A DNA stretch of 64,000 bases from Methanomassiliicoccaceae archaeon (GTDB lineage: Archaea > Thermoplasmatota > Thermoplasmata > Methanomassiliicoccales > Methanomassiliicoccaceae): the NCBI GenBank assembly GCA_963728405.1, contig CAVSJV010000004.1, positions 128,001 through 192,000 of the forward strand. The letters are read 5' to 3'. Made by a program: the position numbers and the translations under genes. Of the stretch, positions 8,955 through 61,267 are shown piece by piece. How positions within the stretch are numbered: the stretch's first letter is position 1; each line of letters opens with the position of its first letter. Under the pieces are notes generated by a model. That model did not search any database and was not told the DNA's origin. It saw only the letters and a list, made by a program, of their open reading frames with translations.

Positions 8955-10205
8955 ATGGCCTATGACAGTGGATCGATCGCGTGGATACTGATCTCCACGG
9001 CGCTGGTGATGATCATGACCCCCGCAGTGGGGTTCTTTTACGGAGGCATGCTAAAGAAGAACAGCATGCTTTCCATGCTGGGACAGACCCTGATAATCCT
9101 GGGCGTGGTCACCATCACCTGGGTGGTGGTGGGGTTCTCGTTAGCCTTCGGCCCGGACACGGCGGGGCTGATCGGCAACTTTGACTATGTGCTCATGAAC
9201 GGGATCGGCGTGTACTCCGAACCGCCCGCCTCGCTTGTGGCGATCGGTGCGACCACCGTTCCGCCATTACTATACATGATGTTCCAAGGCATGTTCGCGA
9301 TCATTACTGTCGCCCTGATCATCGGTGGCATCGCTGAGAGGATGAAGCTCGCGGCGGTCGCGATCTTCCTGACCATATGGACGGTCGTCATCTACTTCCC
9401 GGTCGCTCACTGGGTGTGGGGCGGTGGGTGGATATTCGACATGGGTGCCCTGGATTTCGCCGGCGGTACGGTCGTTCACATAACTGCCGGTGCGACGGTG
9501 CTTGCCGCCACGCTGGTCATCGGCAAGAGGCTGGTCAAACAGAACAACATGGAAGACCAGGCCCACAACATCCCCTTCGTGGTCCTGGGCGGTGCGCTCC
9601 TGTGGTTAGGCTGGTTCGGTTTCAACGGCGGCAGCGCCCTGGCATCCAACGAGCTGGCCGTTAGCGCCTTCGTGGTCACCCAGATCGCAGCGGCCACGGC
9701 CGGTGTGGTGTGGGGCCTGATATCCTACCTCCACCTGGGCAGGACGAGCGTTCTCGGTATGATCACCGGTGCGGTGGTCGGCATGGTCGCTATCACTCCC
9801 GCATCCGGCTATGTGGACGTCACCGGCGCCCTGCTCATCGGCATCATCGCTCCGTTCTTCAGCTACGGTGCGATCCAGCTCCGCAAGAGGCTTGGCTTCG
9901 ATGATGCTCTAGACGTGTGGGGCTGCCACGGCATCGGTGGCACCGTCGGTGCGATCGCGGTCGGTTTCCTGGCCACCTCGGCGGTCAACCCCGCTGTGGT
10001 CAACAACGGCCTGCTGTACGGGGGCGGGTTCGAACTGCTCACCAAGCAGCTCATAGCGGTCGGGGCGGTGTGGGCCTTCGTGCTAGTGGTGGTCTTTGTC
10101 ATGATGAAGATCATGGTCAAGGTTTGGCCTAACTGGCGCATGACCAAGGAAGAGGAGAGGATCGGCGTTGACATCGTTCAGCACGGCGAGAACGCCTACG
10201 CCTAA
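8955..10205 (+). CDS. amtB: Ammonium transporter
   Basis: FFYGGM, FQGMFAIIT, DFAGGTVVH, LWLGWFGFNGGS, DDALDVWGCHG. Confidence 0.97.
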   Translation: MAYDSGSIAWILISTALVMIMTPAVGFFYGGMLKKNSMLSMLGQTLIILGVVTITWVVVGFSLAFGPDTAGLIGNFDYVLMNGIGVYSEPPASLVAIGATTVPPLLYMMFQGMFAIITVALIIGGIAERMKLAAVAIFLTIWTVVIYFPVAHWVWGGGWIFDMGALDFAGGTVVHITAGATVLAATLVIGKRLVKQNNMEDQAHNIPFVVLGGALLWLGWFGFNGGSALASNELAVSAFVVTQIAAATAGVVWGLISYLHLGRTSVLGMITGAVVGMVAITPASGYVDVTGALLIGIIAPFFSYGAIQLRKRLGFDDALDVWGCHGIGGTVGAIAVGFLATSAVNPAVVNNGLLYGGGFELLTKQLIAVGAVWAFVLVVVFVMMKIMVKVWPNWRMTKEEERIGVDIVQHGENAYA

Positions 10206-10218
10206 GGAGGGATGAACA

Positions 10219-10557
10219 ATGAAGAAGATCGAAGCGATAATCAGGCCAGAAAAGCTGAACCAGGTGAAGGCAGCGCTCGAGGCGGTGGATGCCCTAGGCA
10301 TGACCATCTACGATGTGCACGGTCGTGGTGAGCAGAAGGGGCTGGAGTTCATCAACCGGGCTGGAAAGTACCGGGTGGACCTGCTGCCCAAGACGGTCAT
10401 CGAGCTCGTGGTCCCGGACAAGGAAGTGGACATGGTCATCAAGACCATCATCGAAAGTGCCCGATCTGGTGAGATGGGCGACGGCAAGATCTTCGTCACC
10501 GAAGTCGAGCGGTGCATCCGCATCCGCACCGGCGAGGAGAACGACAAAGCACTCTGA
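10219..10557 (+). CDS. glnK: PII nitrogen regulatory protein
   Basis: MKKIEAIIRPEKL, GRGEQKG, GDGKIFV, RIRTGE; directly after amtB. Confidence 0.96.
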   Translation: MKKIEAIIRPEKLNQVKAALEAVDALGMTIYDVHGRGEQKGLEFINRAGKYRVDLLPKTVIELVVPDKEVDMVIKTIIESARSGEMGDGKIFVTEVERCIRIRTGEENDKAL

Positions 10558-10580
10558 AACTTATTCCTCCTAAAAACCAC

Positions 10581-10600
10581 TTCAATTTTTTCCTTTTTTT
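10581..10600 (+). terminator. Oligo-T archaeal terminator after glnK
   Basis: TTCAATTTTTTCCTTTTTTT. Confidence 0.6.
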
Positions 10601-10842
10601 ATAAATTTCATTTATCATGATCTCGGACCTCCGTTTGACAATATGGTCGGGATGAAGGTCAAGTGCACCGTGGAAACTTCTGCAGAGAGATGCGGGGGGC
10701 CTGCACGGTCCGTCCCTAATGTTCCACTTGAGTCCTAAACTGAATCTTGAAACCGGAGACCGCGGATCGAGACCGCATAGTGCTCGAAGAGGGACATCCC
10801 AATTGCACGAGATTAAATAATCGAGGTGCTCCAGCACTATTC

Positions 10843-11214
10843 ATGGCAGCCATAGACATCATGGACATTGCTGATCAGAGAAAAGCGCAGCTCGAAAAGG
10901 ATGATGCCGATGTTCGTGCCGAGGAGACCTATTTCTCGGGGGAGAACGGCGTCTGGGGTCTGCTCACAGTATATGACGATGCCGCCGGGGAATTGTTAGG
11001 ATACGAGTTCGTTGAAACAACAGATAGCTGGAAACGGCCCGATGCCATCCTGGAGTATAATGAAGCAGCCATGGAAAGCGATGAGGTCGTGGTCATTGTC
11101 CCCGATGATTCGTTCTTGGAGGCAGCCGAGCTAATAACCAGAGCCGGGGATCTGGCGATCATCATCTCCGATTATAGCGCTATGGAGCTCGTTCCAAGAG
11201 TGCTGGTGTCGTAA
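10843..11214 (+). CDS. Acidic hypothetical protein, possible degenerate PD-(D/E)XK-like fold
   Basis: TATA-like GATTAAATA ~25 nt upstream; YEFVET and VVVIVP strands. Confidence 0.6.
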   Translation: MAAIDIMDIADQRKAQLEKDDADVRAEETYFSGENGVWGLLTVYDDAAGELLGYEFVETTDSWKRPDAILEYNEAAMESDEVVVIVPDDSFLEAAELITRAGDLAIIISDYSAMELVPRVLVS

Positions 11215-11284
11215 TAAAAAGCTCCTTGCCCGAAGAAGATTGGCATGATATGAAATACCTAGAAGGCCGAACCCGCTTACATAG

Positions 11285-11470
11285 GTGTTACCGGTGACCA
11301 ATGTCAAGGCCTTTCGGGAGAAAGAGCCACCACCTGGAACGAAGTAAACATTAGCCTACATAGGACGCACAGTCATTATCGCCAATGTGGATGGCAGATC
11401 CTACGCCGTGGATGGCCCCTGCACGGATCGGAGAGGCAATCTGGCGGACGGGTCGTTGAAAGGCAGCGAT
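11285..11470 (+). pseudogene. Rieske-type ferredoxin remnant
   Basis: PPGTK*TL..GRTVIIANVDGRSYAVDGPCTDRRGNLADGSLKG; in-frame TAA, CxH changed to CTD, second motif missing. Confidence 0.65.
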
Positions 11471-11771
11471 CATGATCTCAATCGTGAGGTACTTGGCAAT
11501 CAGGAAATCTGGTCAGGAAAATATCCCGGAGAGTGTTCGGATCGTTCCTGATGATACGGGAAAGGATGCCGAGGGTGCATAACCACCGAAGACGAAAAAA
11601 TGAGCAGCAAAACAGGTTCTCAGACCCTTTACTTAATTTTTTCAACAATTTCTTAGGTCACCTGTCGGGATAATGGGCACATTTAAATACATAAATCGCA
11701 AACACCATTTGAAATCAAATTCGTCTGTGAGTATTACAGATCGTTTTTATTTTCCTCATAGAGTTGATATC

Positions 11772-13220
11772 GTGACAACTTTCACAGATCTACAGATCTC
11801 AAAGGAGATCATCAGGGCAATGAACGACATGGGATGGGAAGAACCTACGCCCGTGCAGATAGCAGCAATACCCGCAGGCCTCAAGGGTGGCGACATGTTC
11901 GCCCAGGCACAGACCGGGACGGGAAAGACCGGCACATACGGAACCATAATACTGGAAAGGATCAAACCCGGGATGAGGGCCGCATCCGCATTGGTCCTCG
12001 TTCCCACAAGGGAATTGGCCAATCAGGTCTCCGAGGAGTTAACCAAGCTCGCCAAGTTCACCGGCCACACATGCATCCCCATCTACGGGGGAGTGGGCAT
12101 CGGGCCTCAGGCAGCGAAGCTCAGGAAAGGCACGGACATCGTGGTGGCCACGCCTGGCAGGACCAAGGATCTCATAAACAGGAATGACCTGGATCTTTCG
12201 AAGATATCGGTCGTAATACTGGACGAGGCCGACCGCATGCTGGACATGGGCTTCGCCAAGGACCTCAATTTTATATTATCGAAGGTGCCCAAGAAGAGGC
12301 AGTCGCTGCTGTTCTCCGCGACCATGTCGCCGGACATTAAACATCTGGCGATGCGTCAGATGGTCAATCCCCAGGAGATACAAGTCTCTAAGGACGAGCC
12401 CGTCCTGGACCTGACCAAACAATATTATATCATGGCCAACAAGGACGAGAAGCGCGACGCACTCTGTACGATCCTAGATATCAACAATCCCAAGGCCATC
12501 GTGTTCTGCCACACCAAGCGCAAGGTCGATCAGCTGACGAAGAAGCTGCTGGCCTATAATTATCGCGTGGGTGCGATACACGGCGACGTCGCCCAGAACA
12601 AGAGGGAAAGGGTCATCAAGAGCTTCAAGGACGGTTCCATCAACGTCCTGGTGGCCACCGACGTGGCGGCCAGGGGATTGGATATCGACGCCGTGGACTA
12701 CGTTATAAATTTCGACGCGCCGAACGATCCGGACACCTACGTCCACCGCATAGGGAGGACCGGAAGAGCGGGGATGGAAGGCACCGCGGTATCGTTCTTC
12801 ATGGCAGAGGAGCGCCGGATGATCAAGGACATCGAGTCCAGGACTGGCAAGCCCATTGATCCGTTGGACATAAAGGTCGTGCACAGGCCCGAACCCGACA
12901 TCAAGAAGGTCATCGCGGTCCAGAACGTTCCTCAGGGAAGAGGAGTAGTGAGCCCGCCCACAAGGACGAACATGAACGGGCCTGCGGAGAATAGGGCATT
13001 CATCGAGATCAACTTCGGGAACGCGAACGGACTGAGCAAGGCCGAGATCGCAAAGCTGGTGAAGCTCGGCACCGACTTGTTACCCCAGGACATAGGAAAG
13101 ATCATCATGGGCGAAAGATACACCCACGTGGAAATAGTCGGGAAGGACGTGGGCAGGGTCACCACGGACCTCTGTGGTTACACCTTCAGAGGCAAGGCCG
13201 TACAAGCACGGGCGATCTAG
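11772..13220 (+). CDS. DEAD-box RNA helicase with DbpA-type C-terminal RNA-binding domain
   Basis: AQTGTGKT, PTRELA, DEADRMLDMGF, SAT, ARGLD, HRIGRTGRAG; GTG start. Confidence 0.95.
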   Translation: MTTFTDLQISKEIIRAMNDMGWEEPTPVQIAAIPAGLKGGDMFAQAQTGTGKTGTYGTIILERIKPGMRAASALVLVPTRELANQVSEELTKLAKFTGHTCIPIYGGVGIGPQAAKLRKGTDIVVATPGRTKDLINRNDLDLSKISVVILDEADRMLDMGFAKDLNFILSKVPKKRQSLLFSATMSPDIKHLAMRQMVNPQEIQVSKDEPVLDLTKQYYIMANKDEKRDALCTILDINNPKAIVFCHTKRKVDQLTKKLLAYNYRVGAIHGDVAQNKRERVIKSFKDGSINVLVATDVAARGLDIDAVDYVINFDAPNDPDTYVHRIGRTGRAGMEGTAVSFFMAEERRMIKDIESRTGKPIDPLDIKVVHRPEPDIKKVIAVQNVPQGRGVVSPPTRTNMNGPAENRAFIEINFGNANGLSKAEIAKLVKLGTDLLPQDIGKIIMGERYTHVEIVGKDVGRVTTDLCGYTFRGKAVQARAI

Positions 13221-14226
13221 ATCAATGCATCGAAAGTCTCCCAAGAGTCCCTGGGCGGGTTCGTCATGAGATAACATCCAGCTGTGGATGTTCTTCTCGA
13301 GAGGTCCCACCGAACCATGTAAGGCAAGAAACGAGCATCAGGGCGACAAAAGCAAGTGGAAATCAATACACAACAGCCCGCATGCATATTCCCCCAGATC
13401 GAATTCAAAGATGAGGTGACTGGATATGCATAATGGTGCGGGCGCCGGCATTCATCATGCCATAATCTCTTAAGTTTTCTATTAGTAGGAACTTTGGGCA
13501 AACCACTTTGTATGCCCACATCGGAAAAGGAGTGTTCATTATAAAGAAATGGACCCCTAGGTTTGCCTGATCCATCATTCGGCGTTATTGATACATTCTT
13601 AGGTGAGAGGGCTGGCGTTGACTGTGCCATCCCCCATTATCTGATTCGCGTTAGCATATCATTCCGTATGTGCTGATATTTGTGTTCAAACCACAAACCA
13701 AGTACCACGACGAAAGCTAGAATCGCCGGGAGAGACTGGACCATATTTGTAGACGCATCATCCATGCCTAGATAGTATCCGCCAACTTAGAGAAGGGCAG
13801 CCGCCACTATGCACTCCGAGAATGAACGGAAAGTATCCTGGGGATTCTTGATCTCATTGCTAATTGGTCTTGGAGATTGCTTTGGATCCTTCCATTGTTC
13901 AAGAAGGGCCGGTGGATTTCTCAACCATGCCTTCGGATATTTGGCAGATACGGGGCCGCCTTCGCTCAGAACAAGAAAGATAAATATTCTCTCTCGGAAA
14001 ACTATGAGAATCAGAATAATCTCCGATAGAGCGCGAACAATTAGGGAGAGAGAGGCAGGCTGGAGAATCGGCACTGACACGTGCATGAATCTCTCCCCTT
14101 CGCGGCTCTGAAAGCATCAGTTAGGTCATCGATATGGCTAGCCTAAAAATATCTATTACCTATGCTCCGCTCCTCAAGTACTACTTTTTGATTTAACGCA
14201 AACGATTAATGTCTGGATGAGAAGGG

Positions 14227-50804: not shown

Positions 50805-50904
50805 TTATCAACGGATTGAGATTAAGAAGGTTGTTCTTTGAATGGAGGTCTGTGATAATCAGCACTTTTTTATCTGATGGCCTGAGCATTACTCCTTGCA
50901 GATC

Positions 50905-52188
50905 ATGAGGCGGACCCTCGAGGAAATCAATGGTCGGATCGCCCAAGGCGAGGCGGTCGTTCTGACCGCAGCAGAGATAGAGGTATTGTTGTCCGAGGGC
51001 CGGGAACGAGAAGTGAATGAAGTGGACGTGGTGACCACTGGCACCATGGGACTTATGAGCGGCACCTATGCCGTCATATCATTCCCCCTCTCCCCGCCAG
51101 GAGAGCATCGACGATTTGTACACGCCTCGATCAACGGAATACCTCTGGTGATCGGCCCATGCCCGAACGAGGGGCTGGGGGTGATCGACGCAATGGTGTT
51201 CGGCACCGCCAAGAGCACCACCTGTCCAGCCTATGGGGCTGGCCATCTGTTCCGGGAGTTGTTGGAGGGGAGGCCAACCGATGTCGAGGCCATCTCGGAA
51301 CATGGTGTCACAGTACGCTCCACCATCCGCTTGGACGATATGCCAACGGCCAAATTGATGAGCACTAGGAACCTGTTCCGCAACTACCGGGCCATGGTCA
51401 ATCCGTCAGATATGGCGATGCCATCGATCTTCCATAGCCGGCCCTTCCCTCCCCGATTCGCCGGTCTGACCTTTTCAGGCTGTGGCCACATAAGCCCCCT
51501 TCAGAATGACCCCCAGCTTCGGACGGTAGGGATCGGCACGAAGGTCCTGTTCAATGGCGGAGAAGGCTATGTCATCGGGGCGGGCACGAGAAGCTCGCCC
51601 TCTGACCCGAACCTGATGACCATCGCTGACATGAAGAGCATGGACCCCTATTTGACCGGCGGGTTCATGACCGGCGCGGGGCCGGAATGCATCTGCTCCT
51701 ATGCCGTCCCCATCCCCGTGCTGGACAGCTCCCTCCTGGCGAGCGTCCAGACCAGGGACCGAGATATCCCCCTTCCTGTGGTGGACGTGAGAGACCGCAC
51801 CATGATCACCATGGCCGATTATGGCCAGGTCTGGTCAGGAAGGAGTACAGAGGTAGAGACCAGAACGATCGACTGCCTGGGTTGTGATCCCTGTTCTGCA
51901 GCTGTCGCCTGCCCAGCAGGGGCGATCTCCCCGACCCCGGATGGACCGCGTATCGACAGGATAAGATGTTTCAACTGCGGCACCTGCTCGACCTCCTGTC
52001 AAGGCGCATGCTTCTCCGCAGATTTGGGTCGAGTCATGATCGAGGTGCGCGGAAAGAGATTCGATGTGCCAGTGGTTTGCCGGCAATCGAACCGTAAGGC
52101 CGCGATCAGGACTGCCGAGGACCTTAAACGCCGGGTGCTCGACGGCAGCTTTGTCATCACCGGGAAGGTTGCCGACATTCGGCCATGA
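50905..52188 (+). CDS. comF: Methanogenesis marker 16 metalloprotein / CoM synthase ComF (DUF39 + ferredoxin)
   Basis: DVVTTGT..MSGT, GPCPNE, FSGCG..SPLQNDP, GF.T.AGPEC, CxxCxxC...CP and CFNCGTC; next to comDE. Confidence 0.85.
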   Translation: MRRTLEEINGRIAQGEAVVLTAAEIEVLLSEGREREVNEVDVVTTGTMGLMSGTYAVISFPLSPPGEHRRFVHASINGIPLVIGPCPNEGLGVIDAMVFGTAKSTTCPAYGAGHLFRELLEGRPTDVEAISEHGVTVRSTIRLDDMPTAKLMSTRNLFRNYRAMVNPSDMAMPSIFHSRPFPPRFAGLTFSGCGHISPLQNDPQLRTVGIGTKVLFNGGEGYVIGAGTRSSPSDPNLMTIADMKSMDPYLTGGFMTGAGPECICSYAVPIPVLDSSLLASVQTRDRDIPLPVVDVRDRTMITMADYGQVWSGRSTEVETRTIDCLGCDPCSAAVACPAGAISPTPDGPRIDRIRCFNCGTCSTSCQGACFSADLGRVMIEVRGKRFDVPVVCRQSNRKAAIRTAEDLKRRVLDGSFVITGKVADIRP

Positions 52189-52714
52189 ACCGGTCGATAA
52201 TCTGCCGCGGGGCCATATCTATTATCGGACCATCGATCGATTCGGGCGAGACCTTCACCACCAGTACGCCGGAGCTGACCGACCTTAACGCGCCCCTGAA
52301 CCCCTCCCGATCGCTGGCCGTGCCCACCTCACATATGCCGGCCCCCCTCGCTATTGAGGCCAGATCGGCATGGCGGGAGGTGCAGGTGGGCTGACCGCCG
52401 GTCGAGCCATAGACCCCATTGTCGATGATTACCAGGACATAATTGGCCGGGCACTGATCGGCGATCGTGGCAAAAGTGCCCAGATTCATAAGGACCGCCC
52501 CATCACCGTCGATGGCCAGGACCCGCCGGTCCGGCCGGGCGAGAGCCAGGCCGAGGCCGATCGAGGACGCCATGCCCATCGAGCCGAGCATGTAGAACTG
52601 GTTTGGCGAGTCCCTGATGGCATGCAGCTCCCTGGACGGGTCGCCGATGTTGCAGATGATGAGCGAATCGCCGCTCTCCTGGGCGATGATCTCCAGAGCG
52701 TCGGCCCTGCGCAT
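52157..52714 (-). CDS. comE: Sulfopyruvate decarboxylase beta subunit
   Basis: MRRADAL, CNIGDPSREL, FYMLGSMGMASSIGLG, DGDGAVLMN, DNGVYGSTGGQ. Confidence 0.93.
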   Translation of the reverse strand: MRRADALEIIAQESGDSLIICNIGDPSRELHAIRDSPNQFYMLGSMGMASSIGLGLALARPDRRVLAIDGDGAVLMNLGTFATIADQCPANYVLVIIDNGVYGSTGGQPTCTSRHADLASIARGAGICEVGTASDREGFRGALRSVSSGVLVVKVSPESIDGPIIDMAPRQIIDRFMAECRQPSR

Positions 52715-52715
52715 C

Positions 52716-53234
52716 TCAGGCCCTCCAGAAGTCCAAGTTCAGTAGTACCGCCACTGGTCGGCGGGAGGCGAATGCTCGGTTTGCCGCCCAAATTATCTTT
52801 TCCTCGCCCTGGACCGAGGACGGGCAACAATGCTCGATCCTCAAGGTGTCCAGCAAGGGAACGGTGGCCTGGCCCATGGGGACCTGGGCCGCGATCTTCT
52901 CCCCCTCGGTGCCGCGATGGGACACCACGAGCAACAGGGGTATCTCATAGAGGATATCGAGCGAGACCAGAGCATTGATGCAATTGCCCAATCCGGAGTT
53001 CTGCATCAACAGCGCTGGGCGTTTCCCCCCCATGTACGCTCCCGCGCAAACGCCGACCCCTTCCTCTTCCCGGGTCACTGGCACATGACGGACCTGAGGA
53101 TCGCTGCATATGAGGTCCATGAGGGGGCCCAGCTTGATGCATGGAACACTGGCCACCAGATCGATACGACCTCTTTTTAGACCCCGATACACCACATCGC
53201 CATTGACAGGAGTTCCCAGCGTTCTATGGCCCAT
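52716..53234 (-). CDS. comD: Sulfopyruvate decarboxylase alpha subunit
   Basis: SVPC, VTREEEGVGVCAGA, MQNSGLGN, SHRG..GEKI.AQVPMG. Confidence 0.93.
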   Translation of the reverse strand: MGHRTLGTPVNGDVVYRGLKRGRIDLVASVPCIKLGPLMDLICSDPQVRHVPVTREEEGVGVCAGAYMGGKRPALLMQNSGLGNCINALVSLDILYEIPLLLVVSHRGTEGEKIAAQVPMGQATVPLLDTLRIEHCCPSSVQGEEKIIWAANRAFASRRPVAVLLNLDFWRA

Positions 53235-53857
53235 CAGTAAACCTTCAGATCGATGCCTTCGATTCGTACCTGGTCGCCCTCGGAGCGGACCACTACTCCG
53301 GAATGGACCTTCTGCATCATGCATTGATGAGGTATGAACCTCACGGTCTCCCCTATCTCCAGTATCCTATCATTGAGGATCACCCCCTCGAACGCCGCAA
53401 CCATGCATATCCCTAGTTCGAGGGGGCGATAGTCGGCGTCTCCCAGTCGGCCCAACGGGCCGGTCAGATGAACTGTGAGGACGGAATGCTCTACCTTAAG
53501 GACCCTAGCATAGTGAACGACGGGGCAGCCCAGGGGACGATAGGTGATGAGGTCTCCGGCCGTCACATCGACCTCGCGATCGAAGGGATAGAGGTCCTCT
53601 CGGCAGGTCGGTTCTCCGGGCAAGGGGGCAAGGAGGACATCTCCGCTCATACCTCCTACCAAGCCAGGGAACGATACGGGAGGCCCACTGAACACTGCTT
53701 CCTGGAGCTCTGCCCGATTGGCAGCATAGCGTTCTTGGCCCATCAAGGGGCATTCATCGACATCTCCACCTTCTCTGAGGTGGGCGGCAAAAGCGCGGCA
53801 GGTGGGCCGACCGCACCGCCCACAGTTGTATCCAGGTAACAGCTTGAGAACGTCCAA
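53234..53857 (-). CDS. Fe-S-binding protein (RnfB-like N-terminal 4Fe-4S domain + uncharacterised Cys/His domain)
   Basis: LPGYNCGRCGRPTC...CP; CRE, RPLGCPVVH, PHQCMMQKVH. Confidence 0.85.
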   Translation of the reverse strand: MDVLKLLPGYNCGRCGRPTCRAFAAHLREGGDVDECPLMGQERYAANRAELQEAVFSGPPVSFPGLVGGMSGDVLLAPLPGEPTCREDLYPFDREVDVTAGDLITYRPLGCPVVHYARVLKVEHSVLTVHLTGPLGRLGDADYRPLELGICMVAAFEGVILNDRILEIGETVRFIPHQCMMQKVHSGVVVRSEGDQVRIEGIDLKVY

Positions 53858-53860
53858 GGC

Positions 53861-54559
53861 TCATTCCCCCGTGTAGAACACGGAACCCTCGATGTGCCGG
53901 AGGACGCCGCGATGATGTCTCCGGGCCACCCGGGTCTCCCCACCGCACAAGGTGCACACCGCAAGTGGGGGCGTGTGTCGCAGGTGCATGTCCTCATTGA
54001 CCTCAATAGATGATGAGATAACGTTGGCCAGTTCTGCTGAACCTTTGCCAGTGAGCCCATTGGCCTCGATCAACGCACAGGATGGGTTCACCTCGAGGAC
54101 TCGTTCCCTGAACACCTCCCTTTCAGCCTGAGAGACCATATCGCCCTTGGTGACCACGACGACATCCGCCGTCGTGATCATCGGCCCGATCTTCAGCGGC
54201 GTATTAGGTCCGGTGGTGACATCTATCACGCAAGTGGCCAAACAACGGTCGGGATAGGGAGCGCATCGAAGGCATAACCCGGCGGTCTCTACCAGGAGCA
54301 GATCCGAATCAACGGACCGAGCCCAATCCATCATCCCCTCTGTGTTGTAGATGGCGAAGTGGTCGGGACACATGTCCCGAGCGAGGGCGATCTTGACCGG
54401 TACTCCCAGTTTGTCCAGCCTTCTCTCATCGTCCGTCCAAAGGCAATCGACCTTGACCAGGGCCGGCCGTTGCCCCTTCTCCTTTAATATGCTGGCCACT
54501 GCGCTCAGGACCGAGGTCTTTCCTGAACCGGGTGTCCCAGCAAAGATCACCATCCTCAT
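53861..54559 (-). CDS. HypB/UreG-like (G3E) GTPase
   Basis: [26 protein letters not shown]-terminal CTLC. Confidence 0.88.
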
Positions 54560-55315
54560 GCTGGGTTCACCACACCGCCATCACGGATCGTTTCTCGTAA
54601 GGAGAGCAGCCAATCATCGATAGTGGCCAATCGTGAACAGACCTCTGCCTCCTCGGCAGTTCGCCTGACCACGCGGCGCATGCCTCCTCCGGCCATTATC
54701 ACCCGCCGTGTAGCCAGTAGCGCCAGGAGGGGGTCGTGGGTCACGACCACTACGATCTTGCCACTGCCGGCAAGCAGCCCGAGCGCCTCCCTCTTACGGA
54801 TACCCGCATTCTCGATCTCATCGATCAATACGATGGGGGAATCGGAGATAATGGCAATGTCCGCGGCCATGAGCGCCCTGGACTGCCCTCCGCTTAGGGC
54901 GGTGAGATGACAGCCCATGGCGACCTCCTCGCCGGTCAGCATGTTTGCTGCCTCCACGACCTTAGGTACGAGGGATGCATCCTTTCCCCTGCTCTTCGCA
55001 TGCATGATCAGGAACTCCTGGACGTTCATGTCGGCAAGGAAGTGCATGTTCTGAGACAGCTGGGCCACTGGCTTGTTCCGTGGATCGAAGCGGACAGTCC
55101 AAGCTCTGGAGCTGGCCGTTAAGCATGATCCTGCGGCGAGTGGGCGTATCGCCTATGCTCATCTGCTCGATGTCGCTGATGAGGGTGGTCTTGCCAGAGC
55201 CGGTCGGACCGACTATGCTCACGACCTCCCCCGATCGCAGGATCAATCGGTCCACTTCTTCCTTTTCGCCCTTCCGATCAACGCCACCCTGTACGATCAG
55301 CTCCATACTCGTCAT
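54556..55315 (-). CDS. Soluble ABC-type ATPase; +1 frameshift ~55096
   Basis: GPTGSGKT, Q-loop LSQN, LSGGQ, LIDEIE, VTHD; no adjacent permease. Confidence 0.88.
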
Positions 55316-56553
55316 GCTATCACCAAAAGTTCGCGAATCTGTCCTAATAGCTCCTCTGATCCTTGGTCCGGAGCTATCACCAGGTCTTTCTTGACCTGGT
55401 TGATGATGTGCTCTTCCCCTAACCGGGCCATTCCGCCTCCGGTGATGTTTAGGACACAGCGGTCCAGGGCTCCCACACGACCATCGTCAACAGCCTTGAG
55501 CAGAGCGGCCACCGCCACCGCTGGAGCAGGAAGAATGTCGATGTCTTCCGAACCCTCGAACAACTTTTTGGCCTCCTCGGCCTCCCCATTGGTCACGCCC
55601 ACTACCTCCCCACTGGTCGCATCAAGGGCCTCACCCACCCCCCCTTGCACACCATAGGGGGGCCGGCGGTTGAACAGCACATCGTCGTAGACCCCCTTGG
55701 GACAGCTTATGGGATAGTTACCTCCGACCCTGGCGTGATAGAGGGGGGCACAGGGGATGCTCTGGGCCAGGTGAAGGATCGGCAGGACCGTACCGAAACG
55801 ACCGTCGGCCAATAGGCGGATGGAGGCCTCATAGGCACTAATTCCCCCCGTACCGCTTCCCACGGCCTGGAAATAATGTCTCGGGAGGGCACCCTGGGCC
55901 AGGGTTGCATCGAGCATGACCGTCCCCATGCCGTCCCGACGGGCGACGTTCCTCGCTCCGCCCTCAGGAACAAAGCCTGGATGACCTGCAAGCGCATCGG
56001 CGACCCGGATCGCATCGTAGTAATCGCCCTCGACGGCGATGACCAGCACACCTTTGCGCTCGATGTCGGGGATCCAGATACGGTCCTGGGAACTTGTCGG
56101 AATGACGATGACGGCCTTAGCCCCTACAAGGGAGGAGACGTAGGCGAATGCTCTGCCAGTGTTCCCGGCCGAGGCCACTACGATCGCCTCCTTGCTCCCC
56201 CTTTCCCTCATCCTCCGCATCGTGGGCAGGGCCTCGAGCTCCTTGAAGCTACAGGTCAGCATATCTGCCCGTCGCTCCGGCCAGTAACCATTGAATGTGA
56301 TATACAGCTCCTTGAGCCCGATCTCCCTGGACAAGCCTTCGCTCTTGTAGGTCATGGGTCCGCTGCTGACCTCCTGCAGAGCGCCGGTCACAGGAAGCCA
56401 ATCGAGGAATCGCCAAATCCCCGGAAGGGGCTGAAGTACCAATCTTCTCTCTGAGTATTCGGTCCGGAGCAGGGAATCATCCTGGGAGCAAGCCAGAGCG
56501 TAAGGGTCTTGGAGATGACCGCACTTGGAGCAAATGACACGATATTCACCCAT
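55312..56553 (-). CDS. Cysteate synthase (threonine-synthase homolog, CoM pathway)
   Basis: FNGYWPER.A...CSFKELEA, ASAGNTGRAF, EGGARNVARRDGMGTVM, YFQAVGSGTGGI, LNITGGG. Confidence 0.92.
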   Translation of the reverse strand: MGEYRVICSKCGHLQDPYALACSQDDSLLRTEYSERRLVLQPLPGIWRFLDWLPVTGALQEVSSGPMTYKSEGLSREIGLKELYITFNGYWPERRADMLTCSFKELEALPTMRRMRERGSKEAIVVASAGNTGRAFAYVSSLVGAKAVIVIPTSSQDRIWIPDIERKGVLVIAVEGDYYDAIRVADALAGHPGFVPEGGARNVARRDGMGTVMLDATLAQGALPRHYFQAVGSGTGGISAYEASIRLLADGRFGTVLPILHLAQSIPCAPLYHARVGGNYPISCPKGVYDDVLFNRRPPYGVQGGVGEALDATSGEVVGVTNGEAEEAKKLFEGSEDIDILPAPAVAVAALLKAVDDGRVGALDRCVLNITGGGMARLGEEHIINQVKKDLVIAPDQGSEELLGQIRELLVIA

Positions 56554-56773
56554 TTTCCTTCCCTCACAAAGGCACGGGAAGTTCATCTATTTATACCGTC
56601 ATTAACCCATTTAGGTAAATTTTCCTGCTAATTGATGCATTATTCCAAATAATCGGAAAGATGTGCCAGATAGCTGTAAAAGTAGCCTGGAAAGGGAGAG
56701 GCCCGGAAATGATGGATCTCCGGGGGTGGGACGACTCGCCGGATCGTGGTTCGGACACCCACCTGATGCAGGC

Positions 56774-57889
56774 TCATCCGGCCGAGCGTACGAGTTCGGC
56801 TATGGCATCCCCGGCCTGCTGGGTGTTGAGGCTCCCACCCATGTCCGCGGTGACCTGCTTCTGGTGCATGGCGCGCTTGACCGCGAACTCGATCTGTTTG
56901 CCAAGGTCCGGCCTGCCCAGCTGGTCGATCATCATCTTGGCCGCGAGGATCGCCGCGATGGGGTTGGCCTTCCCCTGCCCGGCGATGTCGGGCGCGGAGC
57001 CGTGCACCGGCTCGAACATCGAGACGCCCTGGGGGTTGATGTTGCCTGAGGCCGCCACACCCAGCCCGCCCATGATCTCCGCGCCGATGTCGGTCAGGAT
57101 GTCCCCGAACATGTTGGGGCACGCCACGATGCCAAAACGCTCTGGAGCGCGGACCAGGGCCATGGCCATGGCGTCGACATACATGTACTCCACCGGGATG
57201 CCGTGCTGCTTGGACCGGGCATTGAACACTTCTCTCCACAGGCCGTAAAGGGAGGTGCAGACGTTGGCCTTGTCCACCGCGGTCACCTTCTCCTTGCCCA
57301 TCCTCCTAGCCAGTTCGAAAGAGTAATCGGCGAACCGCTCGATGCCTTTGCGGGACATCATGCCCACCTCGAACGCGAAATCGTCGGAGGAGGTGGACCG
57401 CTCCGATACCGTGAGATCCATGGTATAAAGCTCCCTCGTCAGCTGGAGCGATACCTCGGCGTTGGTACCCTTGAGCACGCCGCCGGCACCCATGTAGAAG
57501 TCCTCGGTATTCTCCCTCAGGAAGACGATGTCGAAATTCTTCTCCGACTTGAGCGGAGTGTAGGGATGCCAGGCCTTGGACGGCCGCAGATTGATGTACT
57601 GATCGAAGGTCGTCCGCATCTTGATCAGGATACCTTTCTCCAGCACTCCCGGGGCCACCCGGGGGTCGCCGATCGCACCGAAGTATACCGCCTGGTGCTT
57701 TCCAATGAAGGCGATGTCCTCATCGGTGAGCAGCTCGCCGGTCCTCAGATAGCGGTCCGAGCCCAGGCCCATGTAGTCTAGTTCAAGGTCGACATGTTCT
57801 ACCTCGGCCAGGGCGCGCAGGACCTTGACGCCTTCCGCGATCACCTCCTTGCCGATGCCATCCCCTGGGGCCACGGCTATTTTGTACAT
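56774..57889 (-). CDS. leuB: 3-isopropylmalate/methylmalate dehydrogenase
   Basis: PGDGIGKEV, RENTEDFY, NMFGDILTD, EPVHGSAPDIAG. Confidence 0.85.
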   Translation of the reverse strand: MYKIAVAPGDGIGKEVIAEGVKVLRALAEVEHVDLELDYMGLGSDRYLRTGELLTDEDIAFIGKHQAVYFGAIGDPRVAPGVLEKGILIKMRTTFDQYINLRPSKAWHPYTPLKSEKNFDIVFLRENTEDFYMGAGGVLKGTNAEVSLQLTRELYTMDLTVSERSTSSDDFAFEVGMMSRKGIERFADYSFELARRMGKEKVTAVDKANVCTSLYGLWREVFNARSKQHGIPVEYMYVDAMAMALVRAPERFGIVACPNMFGDILTDIGAEIMGGLGVAASGNINPQGVSMFEPVHGSAPDIAGQGKANPIAAILAAKMMIDQLGRPDLGKQIEFAVKRAMHQKQVTADMGGSLNTQQAGDAIAELVRSAG

Positions 57890-58371
57890 TTCTTGGCCTC
57901 CTTGATGCGGGCCATCAGGCCGCCCGACCGGATAAGGTCCTTGACGTACTGAGGATATTGCGGGAAGGTCCAGGACATCCCGGAGGTCTCGTTCTTGACC
58001 AGGCCCTGGTCCACATCCACCGAGAGAATGTCACCTTCGTTGGCCTCGACCTTGCATTCAACGAGAACGAGGCCGATGTTGATCGAATTGCGGTAGAAGA
58101 TTCGGGCGAAGCTCTCCGCGATCACGCAGTCCACCCCCGCTTGCCGTATCGAACGGGGAGCATGTTCGCGAGAGGATCCACACCCGAAGTTCTTGCCGGC
58201 GATGATGATATCGCCTTTCTTTACAGATCTGGCCATTTCCGGGCGTACCCGCTCGAAGAGGAAATCCCCCAGGCAGTTGTTGTTCTGGCTGATGAGCCGG
58301 TCCGCCGGTATGATCTGATCGGTGTCCACATGGTCACCGAACTTCCATGCCTTTCCCTTGAAATTGTCCAT
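57877..58371 (-). CDS. leuD: Isopropylmalate isomerase small subunit
   Basis: DTDQIIP, NFGCGSSREHA, SFARIFYRN. Confidence 0.88.
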   Translation of the reverse strand: MDNFKGKAWKFGDHVDTDQIIPADRLISQNNNCLGDFLFERVRPEMARSVKKGDIIIAGKNFGCGSSREHAPRSIRQAGVDCVIAESFARIFYRNSINIGLVLVECKVEANEGDILSVDVDQGLVKNETSGMSWTFPQYPQYVKDLIRSGGLMARIKEAKKCTK

Positions 58372-58380
58372 GTGATCACC

Positions 58381-59628
58381 TCACTCCGGAGCGACGATAC
58401 GACCGGCGATGGCGCTCGCCGCCACTACTGCCGGGCCAGCCAGGTACACCTCAGAGTCCTTGTGCCCCATGCGGCCTATGAAGTTGCGGTTGGTGCTCGA
58501 TATGCATCTCTCCCCCTTGGCCAGCACGCCCATGTGCCCGCCCAGGCAGGCCGCGCAGGTCGGCCCCGATACGAAGGCGCCGGCCCTCACGAATTCGGCC
58601 AGGAGGCCTTCGCTCATCGCCTGCTCGTACACCTGGGTGGAAGCTGGAACGACGATCATACGCACGTCCTTGTGCACCTTCTTTCCCCTGATCACTTGCA
58701 CCGCGACCCGAAGGTCCTCGATGCGGCCGTTGGTGCATGAGCCCAGGAAGGCCTGGTCGATGGTTACATCGACCTCGCTCGCCACCTTCCCGTTGCTGGG
58801 CAGATGGGGCATCGCCACCATGTAGTCGATCTTCCCAAGATCGTAGTCCAGGGTCTTCCAGTAATGAGCACTCATATCGGCGGCCACCGGCTGGTAGGCG
58901 CCGCGCACCCGGCCCTTGAGGAAAGCCTCCGTTGCCGAGTCACACGGGAAGATGCCGGCCTTTCCACCGGCCTCGATGGCCATATTGCTGACCGTCAGGC
59001 GGTCGGAGACCGTCACGTTCGATACTCCCGCACCGGAGAACTCGAATGCCTTGTAGTTCGCCCCGTCCACGCCAATGTCGGTGATGATCTTGACGATGAG
59101 GTCCTTCCCGGACACCATCTTGTTGAACTTTCCGGTTAGACGAACGTTGATCGCCTCCGGCACCTTGAACCACAGCTTGCCTTCCGCGAAGCAGGCCGCC
59201 GCCTCGGTGCTCCCGATGCCGGTGGAGAACGCATTGATACCTCCGTAGGTGCATGTATGCGAATCGGCGCCGACGATCAGGCGGCCAGGGGCCGCGTACC
59301 CTTCGTCGACCATGACCTGGTGGCAGACCCCGCCGCGTCCGACCTCAAAATAGTTGGGGATCTTGTACTTCTGGACGAACCGGCGCATCTCTGCGGCCTG
59401 CTCGGCCGAGGCGACGTCCTTGTTGGGAACGAAATGGTCCGGTATGAGGACGATCTTCTCCCGCACCGGTTCACAGCCCAGGGCCTCGAACTCCTGGAAC
59501 GCCAGGGGCGCCGTCACATCGTTGGCCATGACATAGTCGATCTCCGCCTCGACGATCTGGCCAGCATGGGCGTCCGTGCCGGAGTGGGAGGACATGATCT
59601 TCTCTGAGATTGTCTTCGCGTTTGACAT
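58381..59628 (-). CDS. leuC: Isopropylmalate isomerase large subunit
   Basis: DHFVP, GADSHTCT, GSCTNGR, CAACLG, STNRNF.GRMG. Confidence 0.9.
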   Translation of the reverse strand: MSNAKTISEKIMSSHSGTDAHAGQIVEAEIDYVMANDVTAPLAFQEFEALGCEPVREKIVLIPDHFVPNKDVASAEQAAEMRRFVQKYKIPNYFEVGRGGVCHQVMVDEGYAAPGRLIVGADSHTCTYGGINAFSTGIGSTEAAACFAEGKLWFKVPEAINVRLTGKFNKMVSGKDLIVKIITDIGVDGANYKAFEFSGAGVSNVTVSDRLTVSNMAIEAGGKAGIFPCDSATEAFLKGRVRGAYQPVAADMSAHYWKTLDYDLGKIDYMVAMPHLPSNGKVASEVDVTIDQAFLGSCTNGRIEDLRVAVQVIRGKKVHKDVRMIVVPASTQVYEQAMSEGLLAEFVRAGAFVSGPTCAACLGGHMGVLAKGERCISSTNRNFIGRMGHKDSEVYLAGPAVVAASAIAGRIVAPE

Positions 59629-59633
59629 CGAAA

Positions 59634-61229
59634 TTACTCCTTCTTGCGGCAGTACAGACGGTCCAGCGCCTCCATGGTGGCGTCCACGCTGGTCTGGACG
59701 ATGTCCGTTCCGACCGCCTTGCCGATGGACATGGTCCTCTTGCCGCCGTTCCTGGCCACCCGGACGGTCACCTCGCACAGCGAATCGCTCCCACCAGTGA
59801 TGGCACTGAGGCGATATTCATCCAGGGATATGTCATTACCCATCACCGACTTGATGGCGTTGATGGCCGCGTCCACCGGCCCTATGCCCGTGGATGTCCC
59901 GGTCTTCTTCTCCCCGTTCACCTCTATGGAGACCACCGCGGTCGGAGTGGTGTGAATGCCAGTGAACACCGCGAACTCCTTCAGCTTGACATTGCGGGCC
60001 TCACGCTGCCCGACGATATGGGAAGCCAGCGCCACGAGCTCGGCGTCGTCGACGTCCTTGCCACTGTCGGCGAGCTTCTTGATCTTGTCTACGACGGTGG
60101 CGATCTGCGCGTCGGTCAGCTCTACGCCATACTCATCCAGCTTGTCCTTTACCGAGTGGGTCCCAGAATGCTTGCCGATGATGATGTTTCTCTGAACGCC
60201 CACGAGCTCGGGGCCGAACGCCTCGTACGTGGAGGGATCGCCAAGAACCCCGTGGACATGGATCCCCGACTCGTGAGCGAAAGCATTGTTGCCGACTATG
60301 GCCTTGTTGGCCGGAATGACCACGCCAGTCAGGCGGCTCACCAGGCGAGAGGTCGGTCCGATCTTACGGGTGTCTATGGATGTCTGTATGTTGTAGAACG
60401 CCATCAGCGCCAGGACCGTTTCCTCCAGCGCGGCGTTCCCGGCCCGCTCCCCCAGCCCGTTGATGGTGACATGCACCTGCTGCGCTCCCTGCCGCACCGC
60501 GGCCATGGAGTTGGCGACCGCCAGTCCGAAATCATCGTGGCAGTGCACCGCGATGGGTACCTTGGTCACGGTCATCAGTTCCCCGATTAGATATTCCATG
60601 GCCGGCGGGGAGATGGTCCCTACCGTGTCGGGGACATTGATCTTGTCCACCTTGGCCTCCTGTACTGCCAGATGCATCTCCTTGAGGAACCCGAGATCGG
60701 TCCTCGTGGCGTCCTCGCAGGAAAACTCAACCGTTACGCCTCGGGACTTGGCGTATTCGATGGACTCGATGGCGCGGGCCTTCACCTCGGGCCGGGTCAT
60801 CTTCAGCTTATGTTGGAGATGGATGTCCGATGTTGCTATGAACATGTGTATGTAGTCTAGGCCGCAATCGACCGAAGCGTCGATGTCCTTCTTGCTGCAG
60901 CGGGCCAGTCCGCAGATGCGGGACTGGAGGCCAAGGGCGACGATCTTCTTGATGGCATCCATCTCTCCGTGTGATGATGCGGGGAAGCCGGCCTCGATGA
61001 CGTCCACTCCTAGATCGTCCAGGGCCTGCGCTATCCTGATCTTGTCATCTACCGACAGCGCGATACCCGGCGTCTGCTCTCCGTCGCGGAGGGTCGTGTC
61101 GAATATCATGACCTTCGCGGGGATCGTATCGATTAACGCGTAGGAATTGAACTGGCTGGTGTACACTCTCTTTCGGTCCAGCGGGGGACGGGTTGATATG
61201 GATTGCTCTGTAGCACTTCGGTCGACCAT
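59634..61229 (-). CDS. leuA: 2-isopropylmalate synthase with C-terminal regulatory domain
   Basis: DTTLRDGEQ, IHMFIATS, VEFSCED, INVPDTVG, HCHDDFG, GIGPVDAA; LeuA-type rather than AksA-type residues. Confidence 0.85.
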   Translation of the reverse strand: MVDRSATEQSISTRPPLDRKRVYTSQFNSYALIDTIPAKVMIFDTTLRDGEQTPGIALSVDDKIRIAQALDDLGVDVIEAGFPASSHGEMDAIKKIVALGLQSRICGLARCSKKDIDASVDCGLDYIHMFIATSDIHLQHKLKMTRPEVKARAIESIEYAKSRGVTVEFSCEDATRTDLGFLKEMHLAVQEAKVDKINVPDTVGTISPPAMEYLIGELMTVTKVPIAVHCHDDFGLAVANSMAAVRQGAQQVHVTINGLGERAGNAALEETVLALMAFYNIQTSIDTRKIGPTSRLVSRLTGVVIPANKAIVGNNAFAHESGIHVHGVLGDPSTYEAFGPELVGVQRNIIIGKHSGTHSVKDKLDEYGVELTDAQIATVVDKIKKLADSGKDVDDAELVALASHIVGQREARNVKLKEFAVFTGIHTTPTAVVSIEVNGEKKTGTSTGIGPVDAAINAIKSVMGNDISLDEYRLSAITGGSDSLCEVTVRVARNGGKRTMSIGKAVGTDIVQTSVDATMEALDRLYCRKKE

Positions 61230-61267
61230 AAGAATCGCCTCGGGTAGCCCAGGATAAAGCAATGCGT

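Follow-up and report, generated by a model that had tools for sequence, protein, structure and literature searches.

An ABC ATPase, a G3E GTPase and an iron-sulfur protein encoded among the CoM genes of a Methanomassiliicoccaceae archaeon: a candidate module for the supply or handling of sulfite

Sulfite is required by every methanogen that makes CoM, yet it is a poison for methyl-coenzyme M reductase, and for most methanogens sulfide alone suffices for growth. Sulfite is consumed by cysteate synthase, a PLP enzyme that converts O-phosphoserine and sulfite to cysteate, or by the non-homologous ComA, which adds sulfite to PEP. The source of sulfite for CoM synthesis has been stated to be unclear (PMC6286981), and homologues of Fsr and Dsr were absent from 86 of 125 genomes of type I methanogens (PMC8351635). 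Genes for an ATPase, a Ni2+-binding GTPase and an Fe-S protein named 'COG2000' have been reported beside CoM genes with the remark that their 'putative role remains unknown' (PMC12068725, Fig 2 legend), and this PLoS Genet 2025 work is the only literature on the trio that we found. The parts of the paper available to us describe MMP16 as the CoM synthase, give no function for the trio and do not analyse which of the CoM genes it follows, the pattern that is analysed here.

The window studied here, a stretch of 64,000 nucleotides from a Methanomassiliicoccaceae archaeon, contains the same three gene types together with cysteate synthase, comDE and MMP16, and by gene types and CoM neighbours it belongs with the clusters of PMC12068725. 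It is a further instance, from a Methanomassiliicoccales-like archaeon, of a gene set that is already in print. An earlier note on this DNA had considered the step to be without assigned genes; as far as that source goes, this is right for function but not for the co-localisation of the trio with CoM genes.

In the ORF list and the window sequence, the trio lies on the minus strand between cysteate synthase (55312-56586, minus strand; TIGR03844 at 2.8e-163, 543 bits against a cut-off of 325; PALP domain) and comD (52716-53234, minus strand; sulfopyruvate decarboxylase alpha subunit; TIGR03845, 200 bits against 148), in the order ABC ATPase (54556-55315), G3E GTPase (53861-54559) and Fe-S protein (53234-53857, TTG start). 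comE follows (52157-52714, minus strand; beta subunit; TIGR03846, 224.1 bits against 221.5). The gene of MMP16, the methanogenesis marker 16 metalloprotein or ComF (50896-52188, plus strand; TIGR03287, 469.8 bits against 364; PF01837), is convergent with comE, with a 32-nt overlap of the 3' ends, and stands at the cluster end. Read from the window sequence, the junctions are ATGA between cysteate synthase and the ABC gene and again between the ABC and GTPase genes, TGA, 3 nt and TTG between the GTPase and Fe-S genes, and TGATG between the Fe-S gene and comD, whose start overlaps the Fe-S stop; the re-read coordinates and junctions agree with the placement given in the earlier note. The TIGR03844 alignment begins at residue 15 of the cysteate synthase ORF, and the start is probably the ATG 11 codons inside it. 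Just upstream, the DNA is AT-rich and includes a TATAAATA-like box, a putative promoter judging from its letters. We infer that the trio forms an operon with the CoM genes, and its three proteins may form a complex.

The ABC gene encodes a soluble protein consisting of an NBD only, and one extra base at 55096 interrupts its frame in the window. It is read as two ORFs in different frames, one of 117 aa (54962-55315) with Walker A, and one of 170 aa (54556-55068) with the Q-loop, LSGGQ, Walker B and H-loop. Its earlier description as an ABC ATPase stands for the motifs, all readable across both ORFs and in keeping with PF00005 (26.3 bits against 25 on the N part, ABC ATPase models matching the C part), but not for a single open frame. 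This frameshift is one of the observations that would fit general redox or metal housekeeping, a reading that we consider quite unlikely, in which the trio has no CoM-specific role, is perhaps decaying here, and is adjacent to CoM genes through co-regulation or inherited synteny. However, an alignment with three intact orthologues (L001, L002 and L006) places a single surplus base in the window gene, and a public short-read contig (151 nt, run X1, depth 2) equals 55001-55152 minus one base at 55096 and is otherwise identical; the frameshift is therefore probably an assembly error. Similar split matches were found in other genes of MAG loci of relatives (L003 and L005), a pattern to be expected where assemblies are prone to indels. 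From runs X2 and X3 came short pieces only, 90-95% alike, that belong to other organisms. Programmed frameshifting was also considered and rejected, as the site has no slippery run, the orthologues are single-frame and the public contig does not have the base.

Over residues 24-213, the intact orthologue L001:6544-7302 aligns with solved NBDs, all of them generic ABC NBD matches. No NCBIfam model exceeded its cut-off on the ABC ATPase, the intact orthologue included, and no SufC model was present among the best 25 of 36 and the best 25 of 56 families matching the two proteins. With no SufB or SufD in the operon either, the SufC likeness proposed earlier is not supported. The lack of a permease, on the other hand, was confirmed: by family matches the flanking genes are cysteate synthase and the GTPase, likewise in 69 of 80 related loci.

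The GTPase belongs to the G3E superfamily (PF02492, CobW/HypB/UreG; 47.1 bits against 20.7) by score and by its P-loop, ExxG, TKxD and Cys/His site. In a 13-sequence alignment, C64-P-D-H67, C96, C99 and C110 are invariant; the CPDH, CLRC and CTLC motifs noticed before are all three present. Invariant, too, are the motifs G8..K14-T15, E91-x-x-G94 and T137-K-x-D140 besides C64/H67, and the C-terminal tail carries C202-x-x-C205 and H216. The COG0523/CobW metal motif is GCxCC, in place of which 13 of 13 aligned sequences have M-C-P-D-H. The scores for HypB (TIGR00073, 55.4 bits against a cut-off of 121.2) and UreG (TIGR00101, 32.9 bits against 204.2) place the protein outside both families. A profile search matched HypB (2wsm/2hf8) and UreG, with the CH motif of HypB aligning with C64..H67 and the HypB cysteine after ExxG aligning with C99, and the AF2 model (pLDDT 80.1, tail below 50) had HypB and UreG as its best fold matches (E about 1e-11, TM 0.61-0.77).

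These retained HypB metal-site residues and fold matches are what one reading, the maturation of a metallocentre or Fe-S cluster, can draw on. In this dedicated system, the GTPase and an ABC ATPase that is SufC-like in role would insert metal or a cluster into MMP16 or ComDE, and the Fe-S protein would be a scaffold or carrier. The His/Asp-rich C-terminal tails of some family members (L103, L105 and P0244), typical of metal chaperones, point in the same direction, whereas neither the SufC nor the HypB model was above its cut-off; we consider this reading unlikely.

The Fe-S protein starts with an RnfB/CdhE-type 4Fe-4S domain of PF04060 (44.6 bits against 23) with the pattern Cx2Cx4Cx15C, whose cysteines C12, C15, C20 and C36 are invariant in an alignment of 25 diverse members. 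By motif and score it is a PF04060 member, and it is predicted to bind a cluster. The C-terminal domain is beta-rich and has invariant C111, H115, C179, H185 and R107 (alignments A1, A3 and A5), so that the extra Cys/His of the earlier description were also found. PF04060 was the sole Pfam family detected in the protein, with no sulfite reductase family, and the full-length models for rnfB (26.7 against 68.7 bits) and ACDS gamma (CdhE; 42 against 306 bits) stayed below their cut-offs, the match being confined to residues 1-55. Compared with the PDB by Foldseek, the AF2 model (pLDDT 84.7) gave no match at E <= 1e-3. In a wide VIA structure search, residues 1-57 matched best the RnfB N-terminus (Z 4.5), and the C-terminal domain gave no meaningful match, with phage baseplate and PilZ-like barrels as best rows (Z 3.5-3.9), a result that does not show a new fold. 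The ESM Atlas look-up returned unnamed Fe-S clusters only.

We examined 184 loci, consisting of 80 loci from genomes of close relatives, 25 loci of a second subfamily and 79 metagenome loci. The order ABC-GTPase-FeS was observed in 77 of the 80 genome loci (the remaining 3 being truncated by contig ends), in 25/25 second-subfamily loci and, as far as the contigs extend, in 79/79 metagenome loci, an arrangement that is far beyond chance. Cysteate synthase lies at most 400 nt upstream of the trio in 69 of the 80 genome loci and directly downstream in 2 more. ComA (TIGR03849, 334 bits against a cut-off of 280) is directly upstream in 33 of the 79 metagenome loci, with a median gap of 12 nt and Methanobacteriales-type flanks, although related genomes are not independent observations and the 33 ComA loci, being syntenic, may go back to a single event. 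None of these 33 has cysteate synthase, ComDE or MMP16 within 7 kb of the trio, which argues against a role tied to ComF. Methanobacterium and Methanothermobacter are among the source-given names in the homologue list. In a quick GTPase tree, the modules linked to cysteate synthase and to ComA form one clade, with the second subfamily apart (100% SH-aLRT).

The trio neighbour thus tracks the sulfite-adding enzyme and not the whole CoM pathway, and the neighbourhoods favour the sulfite branch. Of the two roles that the earlier note had offered, maturation of ComF or supply of sulfite, sulfide or electrons for CoM synthesis, the sulfite part gains from cysteate synthase in 69/80 loci and ComA in 33/79, and the ComF part is weakened by the ComA loci. 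The same loci count against metallocentre maturation in general: the most constant neighbours are cysteate synthase and ComA, which are mutually unrelated, and no MMP16 or ComDE is near the trio in ComA-type loci. To our knowledge, neither cysteate synthase nor ComA needs a redox metal centre.

Loci of the second subfamily show another arrangement, with the trio first in trio-MMP16-CS-ComDE clusters (CS, cysteate synthase). MMP16 follows the trio directly in the 14 complete clusters and in L089 and L097, whose contigs end after MMP16, and this position next to a metalloprotein would suit maturation. It also underlies a different proposal, namely that the trio relays reduced sulfur, from sulfide or persulfide sulfur (by a cysteine desulfurase or as free sulfide), to MMP16, which would receive electrons along with it for the last step, from aldehyde to thiol. 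L088, where the trio and a convergent MMP16 occur without cysteate synthase nearby, is consistent with such a relay, as is the window, where MMP16 closes the cluster. L106, however, has trio-CS-ComDE without MMP16, the window's own subfamily has MMP16 in only 22 of 80 loci compared with an adjacent cysteate synthase in 71, and in loci of the ComA type no MMP16 was seen within 7 kb; we hold the relay to be very unlikely.

A class-V aminotransferase gene lies between the GTPase and Fe-S genes in L096, L098 and L104, and the one in L098 scores as an IscS-subfamily cysteine desulfurase. L099 is syntenic with these three and does not have the insert. Genes for ThiF, a second class-V aminotransferase, SufBD/SufC-like proteins and NifU_N flank the module across L096, L098, L099 and L104. 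The desulfurase insert and the ThiF, Suf and NifU_N flanks tie the module to sulfur mobilisation. A module with a desulfurase among SufBD, SufC-like and NifU_N genes again fits maturation, and an inserted cysteine desulfurase with an adjoining ThiF is typical of persulfide relays.

Outside the archaea, the trio stands immediately downstream of genes for a histidine kinase and a regulator of LuxR type in 24 bacterial metagenome loci, which contain no enzyme that uses sulfite within about 5-7 kb. Bacteroidales are among the relatives named in the homologue list, with Mangrovibacterium, Maribellus and Draconibacterium as carriers. A bacterial trio under a two-component system would be in line with general housekeeping, and so would the second, unlinked trio copy in two genomes (G427 and G432). 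Yet the trio is found in three different arrangements in three archaeal lineages, all inside CoM clusters, and the GTPase of the window archaeon is 55-62% identical to those of Methanobacteriales-type and bacterial loci, and therefore under strong selection.

Among Halobacteriota, 67 of 69 genomes with the Fe-S protein also have cysteate synthase, and of the other two, G410 carries ComA in its place; 80 of 147 genomes with cysteate synthase have no Fe-S homologue (E <= 1e-15). The cs, comDE and MMP16 loci of M. acetivorans are numbered consecutively in print, MA3297-MA3299 (PMC12068725), so that the trio has no space within this CoM cluster. Because of this cluster and the 80 genomes, the trio is not generally required for the CoM pathway. 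As a control, M. acetivorans MMP16 scored over the TIGR03287 cut-off, and the occurrence of MMP16 in genomes without the trio is a further point against maturation. The single-contig methanogen genome G407, with two McrA genes, has the trio and lacks cysteate synthase (E <= 1e-60), ComA and an MMP16 over cut-off; a trio without any CoM pathway would again speak for housekeeping.

In the window's genome (93.75% complete) we detected no siroheme sulfite reductase domain (PF01077) and no Sat-type ATP sulfurylase, thus no recognised sulfite route for its cysteate synthase was found. A complementary distribution of the trio and siroheme sulfite reductases was rejected, as 63 of the 69 trio genomes also have PF01077.

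Considering these results, we tentatively favour, at less than even probability, that the trio is one self-contained, NTP-driven module for the supply or handling of sulfite for the sulfite-consuming first step of CoM synthesis. From the observed genes, families, conserved residues and neighbourhood pattern of the trio, we infer its substrate and chemistry as follows. The trio would make, capture or pass on the sulfite that cysteate synthase uses, or else an oxidised sulfur species equivalent to it. The Fe-S protein would be the redox-active core, its RnfB-type [4Fe-4S] domain moving electrons to or from a second, putative site in the C-terminal domain. This site would be made up of the invariant Cys2His2 together with one or more invariant arginines, to which an oxyanion could bind. 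Loading or gating of the metal site may fall to the GTPase of HypB/UreG type, in line with what G3E GTPases do for client proteins, and the ABC ATPase dimer may drive conformational changes with ATP, a function that soluble ABC modules have in other enzyme complexes. Against sulfite supply or handling, the MMP16 directly after the second-subfamily trio fits a thiol-forming role equally well, and the CoM-less G407, the 80 cysteate synthase genomes without the trio and the Bacteroidales loci without a sulfonate neighbour also stand against it. A further proposal, which we regard as doubtful, is an Fe-S machine of a new kind driven by ATP and GTP. It would need neither oxygen nor siroheme to oxidise sulfide, or persulfide derived from cysteine, to sulfite, and would pass the product directly to cysteate synthase or ComA, with nucleotide hydrolysis paying for uphill electrons in a very reduced cell. 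Also against sulfite supply or handling by the trio, we know of no precedent for a 130-residue non-siroheme domain that forms sulfite, and of no sulfite-forming enzyme like the trio proteins.

Overall, the trio is the best current candidate for the way in which methanogens obtain or handle sulfite. A module behind both unrelated sulfite-adding enzymes makes the question of the sulfite source open to direct knockout and rescue, with relevance for methane biology, for the design of inhibitors of CoM synthesis, and for the way anaerobic bacteria make sulfonates and sulfonolipids.

Among known systems, CysDN with APS/PAPS reductase combines a GTPase, an ATP-consuming subunit and a [4Fe-4S] reductase to yield sulfite; no sequence relationship to the trio was found, the analogy is one of function only, and adenylylation of sulfate is not known for ABC domains. 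RnfB and CdhE/AcsC share the PF04060 cluster domain with the Fe-S protein (42% identity over 53 residues to A. woodii RnfB), but only its first ~57 residues match and the rest is beta-rich, with a best row at Z 3.9. The HypB-HypA and UreG-UreE/F/D systems include the closest sequence and fold matches of the GTPase, which shares with them the P-loop, ExxG, TKxD and a Cys/His site at the HypB CH position, yet it scores far below their cut-offs, carries additional invariant cysteines as well as a CxxC tail, has no hydrogenase or urease genes near it, and is partnered by an ABC ATPase and an Fe-S protein instead of HypA or UreE. As for SufBCD, the window's operon is without SufB, SufD or SufS, but SufC is likewise an ABC NBD without a membrane partner that works with sulfur and iron-sulfur proteins, and true SufBD/SufC-like genes stand beside one variant of the module.

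Six minus-strand genes form one run in the window, namely cysteate synthase (CS; 55312-56586; TIGR03844, 543 bits, above cut-off), an ABC-type ATPase split over two ORFs (54556-55315), a G3E GTPase of the CobW/HypB/UreG superfamily (53861-54559; PF02492, 47 bits), an Fe-S protein with an N-terminal PF04060 domain (53234-53857), and the sulfopyruvate decarboxylase subunits ComD (52716-53234; TIGR03845, 200 bits) and ComE (52157-52714; TIGR03846, 224 bits), both above cut-off. The plus-strand gene for the metalloprotein MMP16 (50896-52188; TIGR03287, 470 bits, above cut-off) converges on comE, and their 3' ends overlap by 32 nt (52157-52188). The earlier note had described close junctions linking the trio of ATPase, GTPase and Fe-S genes with CS and comD, and every one was read in the sequence: ATGA at CS/ATPase and ATPase/GTPase, TGA plus three bases plus TTG at GTPase/Fe-S, and TGATG at Fe-S/comD. 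Its genes and positions also stood, except that the ATPase reading frame is interrupted. Since a TATA-like box lies within an AT-rich stretch just 5' of CS, a single transcript is plausible. Among named relatives, Methanomassiliicoccus and other Methanomassiliicoccales are the closest. Only one trio copy was found in the window's own genome, which carries a second full-length MMP16 outside the window (G000:C17:177226-178425, 474 bits, above cut-off). Directly upstream of CS, LeuB/AksF-, LeuD/HacB-, LeuC/HacA- and LeuA-like genes (56774-61262, minus strand) score between the leucine and coenzyme B model sets and could serve either synthesis.

We take the frameshift in the ATPase gene for a rare variant or an error of assembly rather than for gene decay. 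The first ORF (117 aa) holds Walker A and the second (170 aa, other frame) the Q-loop, LSGGQ, Walker B and H-loop. Compared with three intact orthologues in an alignment, the gene has one base too many, and by codon reading, dropping base 55096 joins both ORFs exactly where the orthologues continue. A 151-nt contig of only depth 2 from a public soil-metagenome run, which may be the window's own source, is identical to 55001-55152 except for one base missing at 55096. Split tblastn matches in the ATPase, GTPase, ComE and MMP16 genes of related MAG loci (L003 6793-7994, L005 9144-10948) suggest indel errors in such assemblies. The protein is a plain nucleotide-binding domain: an intact orthologue gives many matches of 40-60 bits to curated ABC ATPase family models, none reaching its cut-off, and the nearest solved structures are ABCA4 and LolD domains.

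The legend of Fig. 2 in PMC12068725 describes genes for an ATPase, a Ni-binding GTPase and a COG2000 Fe-S protein as often co-localised with coenzyme M (CoM) biosynthesis, their role being unknown. The window's trio is one more instance of this already printed, uncharacterised gene set, on which our search found no further paper. Among 80 close-relative loci from species genomes (Methanomassiliicoccales, Methanotrichaceae, Methanococcoides, Methanolobus and ANME-2), the trio is complete in 77. CS lies upstream, no more than 400 nt away, in 69 loci, and in two it lies directly downstream; four have 1.4 kb or more of upstream sequence from which CS is absent, and five are too short for judging adjacency. 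ComDE occurs in 28 of the 80 and MMP16 in 22. In one Methanothrix locus (L075 about 9348-13956; G152:C1:2900841-2909039), several broken Fe-S C-terminal fragments with internal stops, downstream of the intact gene, look like decayed duplicates.

Scanning metagenomes with more distant members of the window's subfamily as seeds yielded 79 loci, each of which has the trio. The sulfite-adding enzyme ComA (TIGR03849, 334 bits against a cut-off of 280) lies directly upstream in 33, separated from the trio by a median of 12 nt; these have archaeal flanks, and CS, ComDE and MMP16 were not found within 7 kb of their trio. Six further loci are syntenic with them, but cut off or without ComA. In 24 loci, genes for a histidine kinase and a LuxR-type regulator lie upstream. 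Homologues are named by their sources Methanobacterium and Methanothermobacter, or Bacteroidales (Maribellus, Mariniphaga, Mangrovibacterium, Draconibacterium); from flank type and GC content we infer that the former belong to the ComA loci and the latter to the kinase/LuxR loci. One ComA-type contig carries the entire trio twice in tandem (L152 4791-12446). A 294-aa CofE-family (F420 ligase-like) gene, scoring far under the CofE cut-off, lies about 100 nt downstream on the same strand in 37 Methanobacteriales-type loci (L142-L186). The trio is most constant beside CS and ComA, which are unrelated and share only the substrate sulfite; on this ground a role in sulfite supply or handling is the best single explanation, if a tentative one. 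The earlier note's proposal of ComF metal-centre building or supply of sulfite, sulfide or electrons was partly right, with sulfite ranked best and the metallocentre and reduced sulfur left as rivals.

A second subfamily is distant from the window's (Fe-S about 30%, GTPase about 40% identical). Of 16 genomes from another family of the same order, 5 carry it, as do 46 of the 301 Halobacteriota genomes sampled. All 25 loci fetched hold the trio: 14 in the order trio-MMP16-CS-ComDE, one as trio-CS-ComDE, one with convergent MMP16, two cut off after MMP16 and seven without CoM genes. The direct adjacency of MMP16 counts against the sulfite reading and would suit a relay of reduced sulfur to MMP16, the least probable of the explanations weighed. 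In three of the seven (L096, L098, L104), a class-V aminotransferase gene sits between the GTPase and Fe-S genes, that of L098 scoring as an IscS-subfamily cysteine desulfurase; L099 is syntenic but without the insert, and flanks across the four include ThiF, a second class-V aminotransferase, SufBD, SufC-like and NifU_N genes. The remaining three are orphans, two with His/Asp-rich Fe-S tails. Such His/Asp/Gly-rich tails, of 60-80 residues on orphan copies (L103:7846-8673, L105:7989-8849, P0244), are frequent in metal chaperones. A quick GTPase tree with 78 rows, in which each context was limited to 14 sequences out of 175 usable loci and the GTPase of the window was added, set the second subfamily, including desulfurase and orphan forms, apart from the CS-linked, ComA-linked and bacterial clade with 100% SH-aLRT.

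Phylogenetic profiling against CS, proposed in the earlier note, detected the Fe-S protein in 69 of the 301 genomes (E <= 1e-15) and CS in 147 (E <= 1e-60); 67 of the 69 have CS, but 80 CS genomes are without the trio. In M. acetivorans, cs, comDE and MMP16 are consecutive loci according to PMC12068725, so the trio is absent from that cluster. Of the two CS-less exceptions, one, an incomplete genome of 1.1 Mb, carries both ComA and MMP16; the other is a single contig with two McrA genes, in which CS, ComA and true MMP16 were not found. Dispensability in many CS genomes, one methanogen with the trio but without the CoM pathway, and bacterial loci in which no sulfonate-gene linkage was seen count against the sulfite reading. 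General housekeeping would accommodate the last two, and is quite improbable. Of the 301 genomes, 207 contain siroheme reductase domains, and so do 63 of the 69 with the trio, which rules out trio and siroheme reductase as alternatives. Neither this domain nor ATP sulfurylase was found in the window's own genome (93.75% complete). Two ORFs there, each about 640 aa long and bearing a PAPS-reductase domain (G000:C4:119991-120512, G000:C7:108472-108987), might be another sulfite route; the first, about 8 kb before the window start, also gave a match to the ferredoxin portion of the MMP16 model.

The Fe-S family is small, with 43 cluster representatives at E <= 1e-30 among 1.84 billion. Over 25 diverse members, the four cluster cysteines, R107, C111, P112, H115, C179 and H185 are invariant and R86 nearly so; C85 and C151 are extra cysteines confined to the window's subfamily. 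Under the sulfite reading, a cysteine desulfurase could be the sulfur source, as hinted by the desulfurase-bearing module variant, the conserved Cys2His2-Arg site and electron-relay domain of the Fe-S protein could carry out the chemistry, and the two NTPases could load that site and drive the work. In 13 aligned GTPases, C64-P-D-H67, C96, C99, C110, C202, C205 and H216 are invariant; by profile alignment, C64..H67 corresponds to the HypB CH motif, and C99 to the cysteine that follows ExxG in HypB. This likeness would favour maturation of a metallocentre, which we nevertheless consider rather unlikely, the trio being most constant beside CS and ComA.

The Fe-S protein resembles RnfB in its N-terminal PF04060 domain (Z 4.5, 42% identity), whereas structure searches gave no clear match for its beta-rich C-terminal domain. 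Although the GTPase scores far beneath the cut-offs of the curated HypB and UreG models, these two are nearest in fold to its AF2 model (pLDDT 80, final ~35 residues <50), at E about 1e-11 and TM 0.61-0.77.
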